A stretch of DNA of 64,000 nt from Halarcobacter sp. (lineage in GTDB: Bacteria > Campylobacterota > Campylobacteria > Campylobacterales > Arcobacteraceae). The stretch covers positions 544,001 through 608,000 of the forward strand of contig CP182352.1 in the NCBI GenBank assembly GCA_048571215.1, written 5' to 3'. Made by a program: the position numbers and the translations under genes. Positions 51,589 to 64,000 of the stretch are shown here, one piece after another (the stretch's first letter is position 1; every line of letters begins with the position of its first letter). A model generated the notes under the pieces. The model made no database searches and had not been told where the DNA came from. It worked only from the letters and a program-made list of their open reading frames with translations.

Positions 51589-52197
51589 CTATACTTTATA
51601 TGCACTCATAAATACATCAACAGCTCTTACAACCATCTTATCCATCTCTTTTTTTGAAAACTCAATATCAATATTAAACAAAAATGGGTGTATCAATTCT
51701 GATTCTAAAAGTGCATATAGATGCTTTGTCGCAATAGTGGTATCTGTTTTTTTAAGTTTTTTCTCTTTTATTGCTTTTTCTAAATAATTAGAAATAACAA
51801 CTTGACTTTTTTTGACTCTGTTATTGTAAGTAATTTTTCCTAAGTCTGTTATTCCTGATTGGCTTATTGTTAGCCTTCTTAGCTCTTTTAATTTTGGTGA
51901 GTATAAAAAAGCAAGATATCTTTTACCAAATTCACACAGTTGGGTATGTACATTTGTTACCTTGCTATTTTTATCAATAGGTTCATGAACAAGCTCAAAT
52001 TCACCAGCATTTGATATAGATATTACTTCAAAGAAAAGCTCTTCTTTTGAGGAGAAATAGTTATATAGTGTTGTTTTAGAACCCCCGACTCGTGCACAAA
52101 TTTTTGACATTGAAGCTCTTTCAAATCCATATTCTTTGAAAACTTCAGTTGCTGCTTGAATTATTGATTGTCTTTTTATTTCTGTTTTTCTTCTCAT
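51589..52197 (-). CDS. TetR/AcrR family regulator
   Basis: AATEVFKEYGFERASMSKICARVGGSKTTLYNYFSSKEELF; divergent from the efflux operon. Confidence 0.93.
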   Translation of the reverse strand: MRRKTEIKRQSIIQAATEVFKEYGFERASMSKICARVGGSKTTLYNYFSSKEELFFEVISISNAGEFELVHEPIDKNSKVTNVHTQLCEFGKRYLAFLYSPKLKELRRLTISQSGITDLGKITYNNRVKKSQVVISNYLEKAIKEKKLKKTDTTIATKHLYALLESELIHPFLFNIDIEFSKKEMDKMVVRAVDVFMSAYKV

Positions 52198-52264
52198 TAA
52201 AGTTTCTTTTCAACTAAATATTTTAAAGAGATATTAACATTTAAAAAGATAATATTCCTTTAAA

Positions 52265-52285
52265 TGTACAGTACAGTACAGTACA
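52265..52285. promoter_or_regulatory. T(GTACA)4 array, candidate TetR operator
   Basis: TGTACAGTACAGTACAGTACA between the divergent tetR and efflux starts. Confidence 0.55.
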
Positions 52286-52304
52286 ATTTTAAAGAAAGGT
52301 ATAA

Positions 52305-53759
52305 ATGAATACTATTAAAACTATAATTTCTTTTACTATTTTAGCTTTATTGATGGCTGGATGTATACCGCTTCCTGCAAAAAAAGAATTATATAATGCA
52401 AATTCAATATCACAATATAAAGAATCACTCTCAAGTAAAAATAATATTTCATGGCCAAAAGAATCATGGTGGAAAGTTTATGGTGATAAGCAACTAAATT
52501 TGTTGATAAGTGAGGCATTAAAAGATTCACCAAATATGATTTCTGCAATGGCAAGGTTAAATGAAGCAGATGCTTATACTCAAGTTATAAAATCAACAAA
52601 TCTACCACAAATAAGTGCAAATGCACAAGTAACAAAAGAGAAACATAGTTATAACTACATTACACCACCATCTGTTACTCCAAAAGGTTGGAATGATTAT
52701 GGACAAGCAACGTTGAACTTTTCTTGGGAGTTAGATTTTTGGGGTAAAAATCGTGCAACTATAGCTGCTAGTATCTCAAATGTAGAAGCTATGAAAGCAG
52801 AACTTGCACAAACAAGATTGACCCTTTCTAGTGCAATAGCAAGCAATTATGCCCAATTGGCACGGCTTTATGCCAATATGGATGAATTAAAAGAGTATTT
52901 AATAGTTCAAAATAAATTATTGGTATTGTTAAATCAAAGATATGAAAATGGACTTGAAAACAAATCAACAGTCGATGATGCAAAAAGTTTATTAGCGAAT
53001 ACACAAGGGGATGTTTTATCATTGGATGAACAAATCTCTTTACAAAAAAATAAAATAGCAGCACTAATGGGTGCAGGACCCAATAGAGCTCTTAAAATAA
53101 CTCGTCCAACAATTGATTTTTATCAAATTAGATTTGGCTTACCCGATGACTTAGCAGTTAATTTGTTGGGAAGACGACCAGACATAATGGCTGCTAGGAT
53201 GCAAGTAGAATCAAAAGAGTATTTAATCAAAGAGAAAAAAGCTGAGTTTTATCCTAATATAAATCTTTCAGCTTTTATTGGGTTGCAATCTTTAGGATTG
53301 AATCTACTTAATGAAAAAGATTCATATATGGGTTCAGTAGGTCCTGCTATCTCCTTGCCTATTTTCTCAGCAGGAAGATTAAAAGGTGATTTGCGTAGAA
53401 ATATAAGTATATATGAGCAAGCAGTTGCAAACTATAATCAAACTATAACTCAAGCTTTAAAAGAGGTTGCAGATGCGGGGACTAGTCAAAAATCATTGAC
53501 AAAACAGATTTCAAGGTCTTTAGAAGCACTAAACTCTTCAAAAGAAGCTTATGAGATAAAAACAAAGCGTTATGAAGGTGGACTTAGTAATTATTTAGAA
53601 GTCTTATATTCACAAGAAAATCTTATAAATGCAAAAAGAAATTTTATAAATCAAAAAAGTAGAGCGCTTACTTTAGATATAGCACTTAAGTATGCACTTG
53701 GGGGCGGATATAATCAAAAATTGCCTATGAATGAAAAAGGAAACAATAGTGGAAAATAA
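52305..53759 (+). CDS. Efflux outer-membrane lipoprotein (NodT/OprM family)
   Basis: Lipobox MAGC, WWKVYGDKQL, SWELDFWG, LLGRRPDI, FYPNINL, ALGGGY. Confidence 0.92.
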   Translation: MNTIKTIISFTILALLMAGCIPLPAKKELYNANSISQYKESLSSKNNISWPKESWWKVYGDKQLNLLISEALKDSPNMISAMARLNEADAYTQVIKSTNLPQISANAQVTKEKHSYNYITPPSVTPKGWNDYGQATLNFSWELDFWGKNRATIAASISNVEAMKAELAQTRLTLSSAIASNYAQLARLYANMDELKEYLIVQNKLLVLLNQRYENGLENKSTVDDAKSLLANTQGDVLSLDEQISLQKNKIAALMGAGPNRALKITRPTIDFYQIRFGLPDDLAVNLLGRRPDIMAARMQVESKEYLIKEKKAEFYPNINLSAFIGLQSLGLNLLNEKDSYMGSVGPAISLPIFSAGRLKGDLRRNISIYEQAVANYNQTITQALKEVADAGTSQKSLTKQISRSLEALNSSKEAYEIKTKRYEGGLSNYLEVLYSQENLINAKRNFINQKSRALTLDIALKYALGGGYNQKLPMNEKGNNSGK

Positions 53760-54882
53760 TAAAAATAATATTGAAAAAGTAAAGAACAATCAAAATAAAA
53801 GAAAAAAAGCACTTTTGATTTTCTTAGTATTGATTATTTTAGTAGGGGCATCTTTTGGTTTGTATTGGTATTTTTATGCTTCCCATTATGTTTCAACTGA
53901 TAATGCATATACAGATGTTGAAATAGCGCAAGTTACCCCTTCTGTTGGCGGTACAATTAGTGATGTTCTTGTTTCAAATACTCAAGTTGTAAAAAAAGGT
54001 GATATTTTAGTAAAAATAGATCAAACAGATACTTCTTTAGCAGTAGAAGAAGCAAAAGCAAATTTAAGTCTAGCAATTCGTCGAGTAAAAGGTTATATGG
54101 CAAATAATAAAGGCTTAAATGCCCTAATAGAAGCTAGAAAAGCTGATGAAATAAGAATGAATGCAAAACTAAGTTCTGCAAAAGCTGACTTTCAAAAGGC
54201 ACAAATTGATTTAAAAAGAAGAGAAGATTTAATCTCATCTGGTGCAATTTCAGCAGATGAATTAACAAAAGCAAAAAATGCCTATGAAAATGCGAAATCA
54301 AACCTAGATGCAACAATAGCAGAGGTAAAACAATCAAAATCAAATATTGTTTCAGCAATTGGTTCAAGAAATCAAAATGCAACAAAAATTGATGATGTAA
54401 GTGTAGAAAACAATCCAGAAGTTCTTTTAGCAAAAGCAAAATTAGACCAAGCAATTGTAAATTTAAATCGTACAATAATAAAAGCACCAATAGGTGGAAT
54501 AATTGCAAAAAGACAAGTAGAACTTGGACAAAGAGTTCAAGCGGGAACACCTTTATTATCAATAGTTCCTACACAAAATATATATGTAAATGCAAACTTT
54601 AAAGAGGGTAAATTAAGACGGGTTAAAGTTGGTCAAGACGTAATTGTTCATGCAGATATATATGGAAATGATGTTACATATCATGGTAAAGTAGAAGGTT
54701 TTTCTGGTGGAACTGGAGCTGCTTTTTCTTTAATCCCTGCACAAAATGCTACAGGGAATTGGATTAAAGTTGTTCAAAGGGTGCCAGTTCGTATTAAATT
54801 ACTTCCAGAAGAGTTAAAAGTTCACCCTTTAAAAGTAGGTCTTTCAATGGATGTAGAGATAAATACTTTTGATCAAAAATAA
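53749..54882 (+). CDS. emrA: EmrA-family membrane fusion protein
   Basis: VSTDNAY, ANFKE, FSLIPAQNATGNWIKVVQRVPVRI. GTG 53749 with AAGGA RBS is preferred over ATG 53731. Confidence 0.9.
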   Translation: MENNKNNIEKVKNNQNKRKKALLIFLVLIILVGASFGLYWYFYASHYVSTDNAYTDVEIAQVTPSVGGTISDVLVSNTQVVKKGDILVKIDQTDTSLAVEEAKANLSLAIRRVKGYMANNKGLNALIEARKADEIRMNAKLSSAKADFQKAQIDLKRREDLISSGAISADELTKAKNAYENAKSNLDATIAEVKQSKSNIVSAIGSRNQNATKIDDVSVENNPEVLLAKAKLDQAIVNLNRTIIKAPIGGIIAKRQVELGQRVQAGTPLLSIVPTQNIYVNANFKEGKLRRVKVGQDVIVHADIYGNDVTYHGKVEGFSGGTGAAFSLIPAQNATGNWIKVVQRVPVRIKLLPEELKVHPLKVGLSMDVEINTFDQK

Positions 54883-54896
54883 AATGAGAATCTATT

Positions 54897-56447
54897 ATGC
54901 AAAATGATAAAGCTACTTCTGAAGAGCTTATAGGAGAATTTAAATTACCCAAAACAATGTTTTGGATTGCAGCACTTATGCTTACAACTGCAAATTTCAT
55001 TGCAGTTTTAAATATGACTATTGCAAATGTATCAGTTCCTCATATTGCTGGAAATTTAGGAGCAACTGCCTCTCAAGGTACTTGGGTGATCACAGCTTAT
55101 GCCATTGGTGAAGCAATCACTGTGCCACTTACTGGTTGGTTTGCAGCTAGATTTGGAGCTATAAAAGTATTTGTGGTATCTATGGTTATGTTTGGACTAT
55201 TTTCTATAGTTTGTGGGCTCTCTGATTCTTTAGGTTTACTTGTTATTGCAAGAGTATTTCAAGGATTTTCAGGTGGACCTTTGATGCCACTTTCTCAAAC
55301 TTTGCTTTTAAGACTTTTCCCCAAGGAAAAAGCAGGAGTTGCTATAGGGATGTGGTCTATGACAACACTTGTAGCTCCTGTTTTGGGTCCTATAGTAGGA
55401 GGTTATGTTTGTGATGAGTATAGTTGGCCTTGGGTATTTTTCTTAAATTCTCCTATTGTAATTATTTGTGGATTTTTTGCTTGGGAGATATTAAAAGATT
55501 ATAGTGAGCCTTTAGTTAAAAAACCTATTGATGTTACGGGTTTAGTTTTGTTGATTATTTGGGTAGTAACTTTGCAATTAGTATTAGATGAGGGGAAAGA
55601 TCTTGATTGGTTTGCTTCTGATAAAATTGTAATATTATCTACAATCTCCTTTATAGGATTTGTTAGTTTTATAATCTGGGAGTTTTATGAAGAACATCCT
55701 GTTGTGGATTTGAAGATTTTTAGGCATAGGGGATTTACAATCAGTGTTTTAACTGTAAGTTTAGCTTTTGGTGCATATTTTGGTGCCAATGTTTTAACTC
55801 CCCTTTGGCTTCAAACTTTGATGGGATATACAGGAACTCAAGCTGGACTTGCTGCTTGTTGGACTGGACTTGCAGGATTAGTTGTAGCTCCATTTGTAGC
55901 AAAAGCTTCAACTACAGTTGATGCTAGAAAGTTAGTTTTTGTAGGTGTATTGTGGCTTAGTCTTATGACCTTTTGGAGGGGGATTGCAAATACAGATATG
56001 GCTTTTATAGATGTTATGTTACCTCTATTATTTATGGGATTTGGATTGCCTTTCTTTTTCATTCCTTCAATGGGTTTATCCCTTTCAAGTGTTGAAAAAA
56101 ATGAAGTAGATTCAGCAGCAGGCTTATTAAATTTTGTTCGTACACTTTCAGGTGCTTTTGCAACATCATTTGTAGCAACAGCTTGGAGTAATAAAACAAT
56201 TGAATATCATGCCAATTTGGTAGCTATTACTGATAGTGATAGTAGTGCACGAATAGCAATGGAACATTCAGGTATGAGTACAGATTTGATTAATCAAACA
56301 ATAAATATGATGATAAATAAACAAAGTGTAATGTTAGCAACAAATCAAGTTATGATTACACTTTCTGTTGTATTTGTTTTTGCAGCTATTATTATTTGGG
56401 GAGCTGCTAAACCTATAAAAGTCCCTAAGACAACTGCTGGTCATTAA
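54897..56447 (+). CDS. emrB: EmrB-family DHA2 MFS efflux permease
   Basis: TIANVSVPHIAG, QGTWVITAY, RVFQG, APVLGPIVGG, DLDWF; about 14 TMs. Confidence 0.92.
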   Translation: MQNDKATSEELIGEFKLPKTMFWIAALMLTTANFIAVLNMTIANVSVPHIAGNLGATASQGTWVITAYAIGEAITVPLTGWFAARFGAIKVFVVSMVMFGLFSIVCGLSDSLGLLVIARVFQGFSGGPLMPLSQTLLLRLFPKEKAGVAIGMWSMTTLVAPVLGPIVGGYVCDEYSWPWVFFLNSPIVIICGFFAWEILKDYSEPLVKKPIDVTGLVLLIIWVVTLQLVLDEGKDLDWFASDKIVILSTISFIGFVSFIIWEFYEEHPVVDLKIFRHRGFTISVLTVSLAFGAYFGANVLTPLWLQTLMGYTGTQAGLAACWTGLAGLVVAPFVAKASTTVDARKLVFVGVLWLSLMTFWRGIANTDMAFIDVMLPLLFMGFGLPFFFIPSMGLSLSSVEKNEVDSAAGLLNFVRTLSGAFATSFVATAWSNKTIEYHANLVAITDSDSSARIAMEHSGMSTDLINQTINMMINKQSVMLATNQVMITLSVVFVFAAIIIWGAAKPIKVPKTTAGH

Positions 56448-60521: not shown

Positions 60522-60794
60522 GTGGAAATTACAAAAATATTAAAAAGAAATGATGATTTGTTATCTTCTGAAATGGATAGTGAATTAGTGATGATGGATT
60601 TAGAATTAAATAATTATTATGGATTAAATAAAATTGGTAAAGACATTTGGGAACTTTTAGAAAATGATTTGACTTTAGAAGAGTTATGTAATAAGCTTAT
60701 TGAAAAATATGAGGTATCTTTTGAACAGTGCAATGAGGATATTAGTCCATTTATAGAAAAATTAGAAAAATTAAATATTGTTAAAGTTTCTTAA
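60522..60794 (+). CDS. PqqD-family RiPP recognition element (lasso B1-like)
   Basis: SEMDSELVMMD...NYYGLNKIGKDIWELL...LCNKLIEKYEVS...DISPFIEKL; AGGA RBS. Confidence 0.88.
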   Translation: MEITKILKRNDDLLSSEMDSELVMMDLELNNYYGLNKIGKDIWELLENDLTLEELCNKLIEKYEVSFEQCNEDISPFIEKLEKLNIVKVS

Positions 60795-61110
60795 TTCAAT
60801 TAAGAATTTATTATCAAGATCTAAAAATTAAATTTTTATATTAATTGAGGCTTTTTTTATCTATTAAAAATAAAATATCTTCTTAAAAAATATGATTTTA
60901 ATTATTTAGTAAAAATTTATAACCTTAAAGTTGTAAATGTAGAGATTTGTGAAAAGTTTTGTAAAGAAGAGATTAGTTTAATAAATTGGGCAGTTGAGAG
61001 AAGTGCATCTGTTTTTCCTTGGGATGGTTTATGCTTAGTTAAGGTATTAGTTGTACAAAGAATACTTATATACTATTATTTACATGGGTGTAAAAAAGAT
61101 ATTTCACAGG
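60778..61110 (+). pseudogene. Lasso peptide B2 (transglutaminase-like leader peptidase) pseudogene
   Basis: TTG 60778 overlaps the B1 end; in-frame TAA at 60829; frameshift in the T7 run ~60852-60858; then ...INWAVERSASVFPWDGLCLVKVLVVQRIL, and after a further shift IYMGVKK. No AHAW motif follows. Confidence 0.75.
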
Positions 61111-61296
61111 CAGAACTTAAATCTTATTCCGAAAAGTAATAGTTTAAAACTTTTTTATTTATATTATTTTATAAGGCTTTATGACCTAATAAAAGGACAC
61201 ACTTTGAGTATACTTGGTATGAATCTAAAAGATAATAAAAAAGAGTTTCAAAATAAAACATCTTATGTATATAACTATTTAAATAAAAGGCAATAA

Positions 61297-62202
61297 TTGT
61301 ATCACTATAAAGCATTTAATCTTCATTTCCAAACTCCATTTATTTGTCCAGAATTAATCGAAATAGAAGAGAATAACAATTTAGAAAAAGTGATTGTTAA
61401 ATATTCAAAATTCGCTAAAAACTTAAGTAAAAACTTAGTAGATGAGAATAGATATTATCAATCAAATGAAAATGAATACTTGTTAGACATAAAAGATATA
61501 GCAAGATTTTTAATAAGAAATGGAAATGAGATTCTAATAGAACAAAAAGGAAATTTACCAATTGAGACTTTAAGATTATATCTATTTGGTTCAGCTATTG
61601 GAGCACTGCTTCATCAAAGAAAAGCTTTTCCTTTTCATGCAAGTGGAATTGTTACTTCAAAAGGTGTAATTCTATTTTGTGGTGATTCAGGAGCAGGGAA
61701 ATCAACAACTCTCCAAGCTTTTTTAAAAAAAGGCTATAAGAAAATATCTGATGATACAATTTCTATGTTTTATGATGAAAACAAAAAACAAATTATGTGC
61801 GTCCCCTCTTATCCTCAAAGTAAGATTTGGCAAAATACAGCAGATATATTTAATCATGATACAAATGACTTAAGACAAATACATAAAGATTTCAATAAAT
61901 TTGCACTTCCTACTCATGATAAATTTGAAGATAGGGTTTTACCTTTGTATACTATATATGAATTAAATATACATGAGGAAGATAGTTTAAAAATAGAAAA
62001 AATAAATTTAAATACTGAGAAGCTAAATACAATTATTTATAATACTTATAGATACTACTATTTAGATAAACTTCCTCAAAGAAAAAACCATTTTGATTTA
62101 TCATTAAAAATAGCCAAAAGTATAGATATATATATAATATATAGACCAAAAGAGAAAAATAGTTTAGATGAAATTATAAAAAATATAGAAGATATTATTT
62201 AA
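61297..62202 (+). CDS. HPr-kinase-like P-loop kinase (lasso peptide kinase type)
   Basis: LLHQR..FPFHASG, CGDSGAGKSTT Walker A, ISDD; next to B1 and precursors. Confidence 0.85.
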   Translation: MYHYKAFNLHFQTPFICPELIEIEENNNLEKVIVKYSKFAKNLSKNLVDENRYYQSNENEYLLDIKDIARFLIRNGNEILIEQKGNLPIETLRLYLFGSAIGALLHQRKAFPFHASGIVTSKGVILFCGDSGAGKSTTLQAFLKKGYKKISDDTISMFYDENKKQIMCVPSYPQSKIWQNTADIFNHDTNDLRQIHKDFNKFALPTHDKFEDRVLPLYTIYELNIHEEDSLKIEKINLNTEKLNTIIYNTYRYYYLDKLPQRKNHFDLSLKIAKSIDIYIIYRPKEKNSLDEIIKNIEDII

Positions 62203-62257
62203 TTATTATATATAAGAAATTTTATGATATACTTTTAGCAAAAATAATGGAGTTTTT

Positions 62258-62377
62258 ATGAAAAATAAAAAAGTTAATATAAAAGAAATTTGGATTAAAC
62301 CAGAAGTTAAAGAGTTAGATGTTAATAAGACTGCAAATGCTACTTCTGTTAATTCAGATGGTTCACTTTTAAGTTAA
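62258..62377 (+). CDS. Lasso peptide precursor A1 (39 aa), below the ORF-track cutoff
   Basis: GGAG RBS; MKNKKVNIKEIWIKPEVKELDVNKTA-NATSVNSDGSLLS*. Shows the WxxPxxxxLDV leader, Thr at -2, Asp8 and C-terminal Ser. Confidence 0.85.
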   Translation: MKNKKVNIKEIWIKPEVKELDVNKTANATSVNSDGSLLS

Positions 62378-62620
62378 GTAAATTATGGCTATTTATTTCT
62401 TTAAACATTTTTAGTTTTAGAATATGATAGATTAAGATTTTTTTTGGTAGATTTTTTAATAAGATTTTATAATTGGACTTAATAAATTTACCGGCTCTTT
62501 ATGTACCCTTTATTATGTTATTATGATTCTAGTGTAGCATTTATAAAAGATGCTCAAAATCATAAACTTTGCAGAATAGAAACAATTTAAAATAAAAAAA
62601 TAAAGATTTAGGAAATTAAT

Positions 62621-63709
62621 TTGAATTGGATTAAAACTATTTTTATAAATATAAATATTTTAATAATATTTATATTTATATTAAATATGTCAAGCATAGG
62701 GATATATAAGATATATCATATTTTGAATGATGTAAAAAATAATGATAAAAAGTATGAACTACCTAGCTACGCAAATCAAGATTGGGCAAAAACTTATTTT
62801 GATGAATTTAATAATGTATCTTTTCAATATAAAGATTATTATGTTTGGAGAAGTTTGCCTTTTTCTGGTGAGACAATAAATATAGATAAAAATGGACATA
62901 GAAAAACATATCAACATCCAGATGAAAATAATTTATCAAAAATAGCTGTTTTTATAGGTGGTTCTACTACATGGGGATTTGGTGCTTATGATGAGGGGAC
63001 CATTCCTTCCTTTTTTTCAAAATATATGAAAGGAAAATATAAAGCTGTAAATTTAGGAGAAAATGGTTATTGTGCATTTCAAGAATATACATATTTGAGT
63101 TATCAATTGGCAAATGGATTAAAACCAGACTTGATAGTATCCTATGATGGTGTAAATCAACTTAAATCTCTACAAAATATAAATGAAGGATTTGGAAGTG
63201 CAAGAGAAAATCAAATTCAAGAAATGATGAAAGGAAAAGATACAAAAAAGGATTTAGAATTTAATATGATTATAAAACCTATAAATGATTTTATAGTTAA
63301 ATTAGTTGAGAAATACAATAATAAAAACAAACAGGAAGAGTTAGATTTATCAGAAAAAAACATTGAATCAGCAGCAAAAGAAGTAATTGAGAGTTGGATG
63401 TTGATAAATAATCTTGCAAAAATAAATAATTCAAAGTATATTATTATACTACAACCAAATCTATACATTGGAAATCCAAAAAAAGATCATCTTATATTAA
63501 GAGAAGAACGAGGAAAAGCATATAAGTTATTGTATAAGAAAATAAAAGATATGATTAAATTGGAAAAATATAAAGATATTTATAGTAAATTTTATGATTT
63601 TACAAATGCATATGATAATGAACAATATTTATACTGTGACGATTGTCATGTATCTCCAGTGGGAAATGAGATAATAGCTAAAAAAATTATTAATATTTTA
63701 AATAATTAG
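62621..63709 (+). CDS. Membrane-anchored SGNH/GDSL hydrolase-family protein
   Basis: N-terminal TM; FIGGSTTWG, NLGENG, YDGVN, DDCH blocks. Confidence 0.8.
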   Translation: MNWIKTIFININILIIFIFILNMSSIGIYKIYHILNDVKNNDKKYELPSYANQDWAKTYFDEFNNVSFQYKDYYVWRSLPFSGETINIDKNGHRKTYQHPDENNLSKIAVFIGGSTTWGFGAYDEGTIPSFFSKYMKGKYKAVNLGENGYCAFQEYTYLSYQLANGLKPDLIVSYDGVNQLKSLQNINEGFGSARENQIQEMMKGKDTKKDLEFNMIIKPINDFIVKLVEKYNNKNKQEELDLSEKNIESAAKEVIESWMLINNLAKINNSKYIIILQPNLYIGNPKKDHLILREERGKAYKLLYKKIKDMIKLEKYKDIYSKFYDFTNAYDNEQYLYCDDCHVSPVGNEIIAKKIINILNN

Positions 63710-63765
63710 AATAATATTCATTTGTTTAATGACAGAATTGAACATTAATAAAATAAGAGTTTTAT

Positions 63766-63899
63766 ATGGAAAATAAGAAAATCGAAAAAGTAGAAGTAAA
63801 AAAGTCTTGGGTTAAATCAAAAGTTAAAGAGTTAGATGTTAATAAAACAGCAGCTAGTGGTGGTGCTGTGCGTGGGATGGTTCAGCTTACGCTAGTTAA
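63766..63899 (+). pseudogene. Second lasso precursor A2, apparently frameshifted
   Basis: MENKKIEKVEVKKSWVKSKVKELDVNKTA-ASGGA...; the shifted frame from 63876 reads DGSAYAS*, parallel to A1 DGSLLS*. Confidence 0.75.
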
Positions 63900-64000
63900 A
63901 AGTAAGCCGTTAAGAAACTATGTTAATCGGGTGAGACAATACCTGAAAATGTAGAAATTAAAGGTAAGAGAATTTACCTAAATTGTATTAGTAGTGTAAA

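Follow-up and report, generated by a model that had tools for sequence, protein, structure and literature searches.

Can a lasso peptide cluster that has lost its own leader peptidase still contribute to a product? To our knowledge, lasso clusters are usually viewed as self-contained, and those without the B2 leader peptidase are discarded as broken. The question is raised by a window of 64,000 nucleotides (C1:544001-608000) in the complete, 3.61-Mb genome (28.5% GC) of Halarcobacter sp., in which positions 60522-63954 hold a lasso gene stretch consisting of B1, a broken B2, a kinase, the precursor A1, an SGNH hydrolase and a second precursor, A2 (coordinates with the prefix C1 are genomic, the others are those of the window unless a locus is named). 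We tentatively propose, at somewhat less than even probability, that this locus is a satellite cluster, which would borrow the single intact B2 of the genome, at C1:2138547, after deletion of its own B2, exporter and nucleotidyltransferase. A preliminary description made from the letters of the window had reported the recognition element B1, a broken B2, an HPr-kinase-like gene and an SGNH gene between two precursors, all of which lie where it had placed them. Its assignment of the locus to the paeninodin type is likewise borne out by the kinase, the split B1/B2, the WxxP leader and the terminal serine. The features of the locus are as follows.

60522..60794, forward strand: B1, a stand-alone recognition element (RRE; PqqD fold) for peptides made by the ribosome and then modified post-translationally (RiPPs), 90 residues, intact (PF05402, E = 8e-18)
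60778..61099, forward strand: B2 leader-peptidase pseudogene with a TTG start (profile match E = 3e-21, with an internal stop)
61100..61296, forward strand: what remains, at the C-terminal end, of an NTP_transf_5 (PsmN-like) nucleotidyltransferase; the frame changes at least once more
61297..62202, forward strand: HPr-kinase-like peptide kinase, 301 residues, intact (His114, Walker A Lys135, Asp152-Asp153)
62258..62377, forward strand: precursor A1, 39 residues, intact (leader of 26 residues with W(-15)xxP and T(-2); predicted core NATSVNSDGSLLS)
62621..63709, forward strand: membrane-anchored SGNH/GDSL hydrolase of a CgnD-like subfamily, 362 residues, intact (Ser115, Asn179, Asp340, His343)
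63766..63899, forward strand: precursor A2, a pseudogene paralogous to A1 (leader Pro changed to Ser, one-base frameshift near 63870)
63900..64000, no strand: beginning of the stretch that separates A2 from the convergent cyclase; the cyclase lies past the window end and belongs to the locus
C1:608254-610107 (window-equivalent 64254-66107; L001:5255-7108), reverse strand: cyclase, 617 residues, intact

The B2 remnant carries a stop at codon 18 (60829), a T run shortened by 1 nt (~60852), a loss of ~17 nt (~61070) and a truncation. Its catalytic cysteine is kept and the AHAW histidine is gone, and no B2 with both residues is encoded within the cluster. The preliminary description had recognised this gene as broken, and the stop and frameshifts agree with that; the stretch after the remnant, however, belongs to a nucleotidyltransferase and not to B2. 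What is left of the latter corresponds to the last ~60 codons and matches the C-terminus of the nucleotidyltransferase of a second, complete cluster in the same genome (locus 2; 64% identity over 47 residues, E = 4e-11). The intact NTP_transf_5 gene expected of a pseudomycoidin-type cluster is thus missing here and sits in locus 2. The deletion junction lies at ~61098-61100. Compared with the intact metagenome locus L050, ~2.9 kb is gone (3.7 kb compared with locus 2), reaching from the ‘GVKKD’ motif of B2 to the last ~60 nucleotidyltransferase codons; the deletion took the catalytic histidine of B2, the ATP-binding cassette (ABC) exporter and most of the nucleotidyltransferase.

The second damaged gene is A2. 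Two precursors with matching leaders and C-terminal serines had been described; A1 fits this account and the A2 leader is indeed paralogous (78% DNA identity to A1), but the leader proline is lost and one base is missing from the core, so that the serine is out of frame. A2 reads through as a 62-residue open reading frame to 63954 without a ring acceptor, and the half with the aspartate and the terminal serine lies in another frame, ending at 63899. With the frameshift and the lost proline, A2 as encoded does not have the features of a lasso precursor. Contigs from the sequencing runs X1 and X2 cross the locus without a gap or a single difference, and therefore lend no support to assembly error as the cause of the frameshifts; since the assembly may have been built from these runs, the contigs are not independent evidence. 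Among the indels listed for run X4, the single-letter deletions fall elsewhere than the lesions. Assembly error is an improbable source of the lesions.

The remaining core genes are intact. The kinase shows a weak Hpr_kinase_C match, and its counterpart in a cluster annotated as paeninodin-family is 30% identical (E = 1e-43); its nearest relative, P0002, which is encoded on a 49.6-kb contig, is 87% identical, and His114, Lys135 and Asp152-Asp153 are invariant across 26 homologs. The locus thus combines an HPr-kinase homolog bearing the Walker A and DD motifs with a core that ends in serine. The predicted A1 core NATSVNSDGSLLS has 13 residues, with Asp8 as the ring acceptor and Ser13 at the terminus. 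A1 shows the lasso precursor pattern ([Y/W]xxP, Thr(-2) and Asp/Glu at core position 7-9) in W-15, P-12, T-2 and Asp8, and its W-15 follows the register of PbaA (PMC13381572). A1 did not match the NCBIfam paeninodin precursor model NF033524, for which a Priestia control scored 57.7 at a cut-off of 27. B1 scores 77.4 bits with the NCBIfam RRE model NF033536, just under the cut-off of 80, is 68% identical to the B1 of locus 2 and finds TbiB1 and 9X90 (PbaB1) as its best PDB matches. With residue numbering mapped by us, its Asn36 and Asp73 align with Gly42 and Gln79 of PbaB1 (PDB 9X90), so that Asn36 replaces the conserved glycine at PbaB1 position 42. The RREs of the window locus and of locus 2 both carry this Asn/Asp pair, which lowers selectivity when placed in PbaB1 (PMC13381572).

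The cyclase, correctly reported as absent from the window, sits 254 bp past its end on the reverse strand. It matches PF00733 (E = 8e-24), and its top NCBIfam match is the lasso cyclase model NF033535 (213.9, cut-off 525). A PDB sequence search returned AsnB-type enzymes only (top E = 4e-16); an ordinary asparagine synthetase is nevertheless ruled out by the missing Cys1, which the control AsnB has, by the motifs SGGLDS, GxxGN, DPT and QxAD, which are those of the annotated paeninodin-family cyclase, and by the tree. A single-copy inverted repeat of 141 nt (L001:5144-5284; C1:608143-608283) overlaps the end of the gene and duplicates its last ten codons. Its 31-nt arms are 87% complementary, with a predicted folding energy of -50 kcal/mol calculated with no shuffle control; it could be a bidirectional terminator or a rearrangement scar.

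The genome contains three kinase-type lasso loci and one intact B2. Locus 2 (C1:2138300-2149616) comprises B1, B2, an ABC transporter, DUF218, the nucleotidyltransferase, an IS256 element, two sulfotransferase genes, a kinase, a precursor and a cyclase; locus 3 (C1:763-773 kb) is without B2. A B2 profile search of the genome gave two matches, the intact locus-2 copy, 1.53 Mb from the window locus, and the window remnant. The look beyond position 64000 and across the whole genome that the preliminary description had recommended has therefore yielded both the cyclase and one intact B2. Borrowing of the distant B2 is suggested because the cluster’s own B2 is destroyed, its other core genes are intact and one intact B2 exists in the genome. 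The two loci are kin: in the tree, the cyclase of the window locus groups as sister to that of locus 2 (support 96/91), and since the pair is only ~35% identical, the split is old. The leaders of A1 and of the locus-2 precursor have W-15, P-12, L-7, D-6 and T-2 in common. The IS256-family element inside locus 2 (G000:C1:2142874-2144091) occurs at 16 other places; the family comprises 9 identical full-length copies, 6 frameshifted ones and 2 fragments.

In a different role, B1, kinase and cyclase of the island would be kept as accessory enzymes that serve the precursors of loci 2 and 3, or A1 would stay uncut or become a linear phosphopeptide. That both RREs have the less selective Asn/Asp pair is compatible with this, as is the finding that systems of an RRE and an HPr kinase make linear polyphosphorylated peptides (PMC13381572). 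However, loci 2 and 3 each have their own B1, kinase and cyclase, and A1 has kept its ring aspartate and T(-2) in two strains, so that we regard this role as decidedly unlikely. A divergent HPr-kinase homolog occurs in 11 of 183 other genomes of the family, and in all four contexts read (L074:9137-10486, L075:8888-10265, L076:4755-6115 and L077:9043-10370) it is flanked by a peptide of ~70 residues with a twin-arginine-like leader and by an RRE, near a nucleotidyltransferase, in apparent capsule loci (capsule genes named by eye). B2 is absent from those genomes and no cyclase was found within the 18-20 kb read; this is possibly a linear phosphopeptide system exported by the twin-arginine pathway.

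How the decay is distributed bears on whether the cluster is simply dead. B1, kinase, A1, SGNH and cyclase carry 0 disrupting lesions in 4242 nt, compared with 3 point lesions in ~320 nt of B2; under uniform placement, the chance that all four lesions would land in the 514-nt remnant is 1.4e-4 (post hoc). Unique amino-acid changes in the window, locus-2 and L050 copies number 14, 3 and 5 for B2 (69 columns), 9, 11 and 9 for B1, 65, 94 and 99 for the cyclase, and 39, 55 and 31 for the kinase, where P0012 stands for L050. B2 differs from the other genes in this respect (Fisher p = 0.001, sites assumed independent, post hoc). In a relative-rate comparison with P0002, derived changes in the kinase stand at 9:13 and hence show no acceleration; none was seen in B1 or the cyclase either. 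The elevated number of unique changes in B2, which B1, kinase and cyclase do not share, suggests that B2 decayed over a long time while the remaining genes evolved normally.

A relative sequenced at low depth in another study (run X5) offers a second view, with the A1 leader partly covered and the B2 region and A2 core uncovered at 80% likeness. The covered part of the A1 leader has one listed change, which is synonymous, and the core has four replacements (S7T, G9A, S10T, L12K) that spare Asp8 and Ser13. In the pieces of kinase, SGNH and cyclase (depth 3-4.5), the rows listed contain 18 replacement and 10 silent codons, which indicates only moderate constraint. In one X5 contig (record 3, depth 4.3; window 62295-62577 and 63746-63811), the 5' end of A2 is joined to the remaining A1 and the spacer before SGNH, as would result if one precursor had converted the other or if precursor and SGNH formed a tandem unit.

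The excess of replacement changes in X5 would suit a dead or dying relic, an island maintained for a while after B2 loss and now inactive, whose intact genes have not yet been lesioned. Loss or breakage of B2, exporter, nucleotidyltransferase and A2 points the same way; a DNA search of 25 congeneric genomes found only short chance matches to the island in the 24 others, and the complete cluster elsewhere could render it redundant. A relic is at odds, however, with 4242 nt free of lesions, with B1, kinase and cyclase unaccelerated while B2 ran 3-5 times faster, and with the intact catalytic motifs of kinase, SGNH and cyclase. We consider it doubtful, if still a serious contender. The suggestion in the preliminary description that this copy may be non-functional likewise sits poorly with decay confined to the B2/nucleotidyltransferase remnant and A2, with other genes that look maintained and with an intact B2 elsewhere in the genome.

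If the satellite cluster is active, as we propose, the chemistry of paeninodin (PMC8498205) provides a template for a hypothetical pathway, for which we infer that the genes are expressed: (i) B1 would bind the W-x-x-P leader of A1, as extrapolated from paeninodin and pseudomycoidin; (ii) the kinase would phosphorylate the terminal Ser13 of the linear A1 precursor; (iii) the B2 of locus 2, presented by B1, would cut A1 after Thr-Ala and free the 13-residue core; (iv) the local cyclase would join the amine of Asn1 to Asp8. The predicted product has an 8-residue ring and a 5-residue phospho-tail, with a calculated [M+H]+ of 1246.59, or 1326.56 with one phosphate, and could lose its thread to become a branched cycle. 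For export and any glycosylation, the ABC transporter and the nucleotidyltransferase of locus 2 would be required.

Several observations weigh against this proposal. A2 has decayed too, and the codon changes in X5 speak for moderate constraint only. The kinase departs at two conserved columns (P40A and A117G), both departures being absent from P0002, and the window and locus-2 leaders have just 5 of their last 15 residues in common. A 5-residue tail without an aromatic plug is unusual for a threaded lasso, as is Asn1. PsmB1/B2 did not cut a foreign precursor with 14 of 19 identical leader residues (PMC6993621). Threading is to be viewed with caution, because the same paper describes the unthreading of pseudomycoidin, a product without a bulky plug.

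Pseudomycoidin also illustrates a route that needs no B2, in which a housekeeping protease would trim the A1 leader before the local cyclase closes the ring. Its formation in E. coli and B. subtilis did not require PsmB1/B2, and a Stanieria cluster with cyclase, precursor and kinase but no B genes is described as well (PMC6993621), so B-less lasso clusters are already known in principle; locus 3 of the present genome likewise lacks B2. Conservation of B1 and of the B2-specific T(-2) argues against this route, although B1 may serve the kinase or the cyclase, and no candidate protease has been identified. We regard maturation by a host protease as unlikely and retain cleavage by the locus-2 B2 as our working proposal.

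A replacement for B2 might instead lie within the island. By profile, the best solved match of the SGNH hydrolase is CgnD (PDB 8A2N, E = 7e-15; runner-up 0.004), and its structural model (mean predicted local distance difference test score 85) also finds CgnD as top fold match (E = 5e-12, template modelling scores 0.58/0.69). CgnD is an SGNH enzyme that removes the leader in crocagin biosynthesis (PMC10070186, PMC10885120), and the triad Ser115/Asp340/His343 is intact here. The SGNH could therefore be a serine hydrolase that stands in, as a non-orthologous replacement, for the otherwise universal cysteine peptidase B2, and it counts in favour that the A1-SGNH spacer is kept in the X5 relative and that the window SGNH profile finds no match (0/7) in the B2-bearing genomes of the phylum. 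However, CgnD is matched just as well by two SGNHs of glycan loci that served as controls (E = 0.015 and 0.013, compared with 0.0066 for the window SGNH), the family is large (8478 clusters at E<=1e-10), and all four homolog contexts read have MBOAT, SxtJ or carbamoyltransferase neighbours and no lasso genes. An N-terminal hydrophobic helix is found in 142 of 147 representatives by a crude hydropathy rule, with a charge bias for N-in orientation in 100 versus 13, and the window SGNH has a CxxC at the active site. Its membrane helix sets it apart from a soluble cytoplasmic enzyme of the CgnD type, which is without an anchor. Helix, charge bias and CxxC point to a periplasmic active site, the facing side being predicted from charge bias alone, and such a site could not act before cytoplasmic cyclisation. 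Because glycan-locus SGNHs match CgnD equally and the window SGNH is membrane-anchored, a role as replacement peptidase is highly improbable. Most likely, it is a periplasm-facing O-acyl hydrolase or transferase from surface-glycan loci, which would come into play once the peptide is exported or else be a mere passenger.

The SGNH has no MBOAT partner in the island; an MBOAT gene of the genome, labelled by its likeness to a PF03062 match, lies at C1:1138670 beside other SGNH paralogs. Linkage of this SGNH to lasso genes was not found elsewhere in 184 genomes of the family (three other matches, of which the two with context read are non-lasso), nor in 401 genomes of the phylum or three further lasso-bearing genomes. 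Its closest homolog, P0054 (61%), lies on contigs under 2 kb. Sulfurovum-type lasso clusters at L045:1943-4553 and L049:1504-4114 have an MBOAT gene (PF03062) and an unassigned partner gene between kinase and precursor, which suggests O-acylation as a tailoring step; the partner is not detectably of the window SGNH family.

The locus appears to have been inserted at its present site. Around the flanking Nudix gene, 11 congeneric loci were examined (11 of 13 matches fetched). The counterpart of the PAS histidine kinase at C1:610346 lies directly beside the Nudix gene in six of them, whereas that place is held by the gene next after the kinase in four and by another gene in one; since none of the 11 carries lasso genes there, the ~5.9 kb between the two flanks represents an insertion in this genome. 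Direct repeats were not found at the island ends, and a promoter/terminator scan gave a chance-level result (46 vs 52.5). A single-protein scan of genome contigs confirmed the same island in 0 of 599 stretches, and alignment scans aimed at its relatives led to four and three loci. Some 4 kb from the island, window 51589-56447 encodes ordinary efflux genes beside a regulator, which we take to be a TetR regulator, an outer-membrane factor, a membrane-fusion protein and an MFS pump of the EmrAB type. What is presumably a multicomponent phenol-hydroxylase-like operon follows ~18 kb past the window (G000:C1:625927-630002).

The paeninodin-type lasso locus is rare in this lineage. B2 exceeds the Pfam cut-off in 1 of 184 genomes of the family, this genome, and the NCBIfam cut-off in 8 of 401 genomes of the phylum. 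A B2 profile search, of whose 3111 matches the best 120 were listed, gave distant Sulfurovum-type sequences, and the B2 of the closest relative (the P0002 genome) was not among the matches listed. The intact clusters in relatives that the preliminary description had recommended looking for exist: L050 has the order B1-B2-ABC-nucleotidyltransferase-kinase-sulfotransferase with a convergent cyclase and a precursor, and its B1, kinase and cyclase are 71%, 47% and 38% identical to those of the window locus. The absence of a linked cyclase from every relative would have spoken against a lasso family; a cyclase is linked here and in six of the seven other Campylobacterota B2 loci fetched, the seventh contig being just 2.9 kb long. 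The view of the family as uncharacterised in this lineage holds for experimental work within the literature searched; NCBI annotation already names lasso B2 genes in Sulfurovum. Two clusters have unusual proteins. At L043:12996-15095, a cyclase open reading frame (699 residues) runs on into the precursor in the same frame, so that a WxxP leader and core with an internal methionine make up the final ~55 residues; either cyclase and precursor are fused here or a stop codon has been lost. At L046:11730-14606, a 958-residue NQR2/RnfD, FG-GAP and ASPIC/UnbV protein lies within a lasso cluster with sulfate-activation-like genes.

Like paeninodin-type clusters (PadeCAKB1B2D; Priestia plasmid cluster NZ_CP064100.1), the window locus has a split B1/B2, an HPr-kinase homolog (30% identity), a terminal serine, WxxP at -15 with T(-2), and the cyclase motifs SGGLDS/GxxGN/DPT/QxAD. 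It differs in the deletion of B2 and exporter, the cyclase on the opposite strand, the SGNH between precursors, the 13-residue core with Asn1 and the Asn/Asp of the RRE instead of Gly/Gln, and it stays under the NCBIfam cut-offs for NF033524, NF033535 and NF033536. With pseudomycoidin (psmCAKB1B2ND), it shares the ancestral B2-ABC-nucleotidyltransferase-kinase content and the DD motif required by PsmK, and that system is the precedent for a peptide that matures without B1/B2 and for a product with a small tail that unthreads (PMC6993621). The pseudomycoidin B2 is intact and proved dispensable in surrogate hosts, in contrast to the B2 of the window locus, whose loss, along with that of the nucleotidyltransferase, occurred in nature. 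L050 and locus 2 are complete and have sulfotransferases, and lack an SGNH and a second precursor. CgnD resembles the window SGNH in subfamily, fold and Ser/Asp/His triad, but is only 15-17% identical, is anchor-free, acts after modification and belongs to another RiPP class (PMC10070186). The literature searched, which takes in a minority of subscription papers, gave no description of this locus, and none of a lasso cluster containing an SGNH or of B2 being shared in nature.

What paeninodin-type peptides do for their producers has yet to be established (PMC13381572), and the window locus does not settle it. Comparison with an intact relative allows the B2 loss to be followed down to single bases, the other genes having stayed conserved, in a genome that encodes three cyclases but one peptidase. 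With its 13 residues, the predicted phospho-core would also test how small a lasso fold can be. If the SGNH had replaced B2, a large, unstudied membrane-anchored SGNH family would be able to cut peptides. If cleavage in trans by the locus-2 B2 is true, the locus would represent natural peptidase sharing between lasso clusters, which would argue for re-examining clusters without B2.

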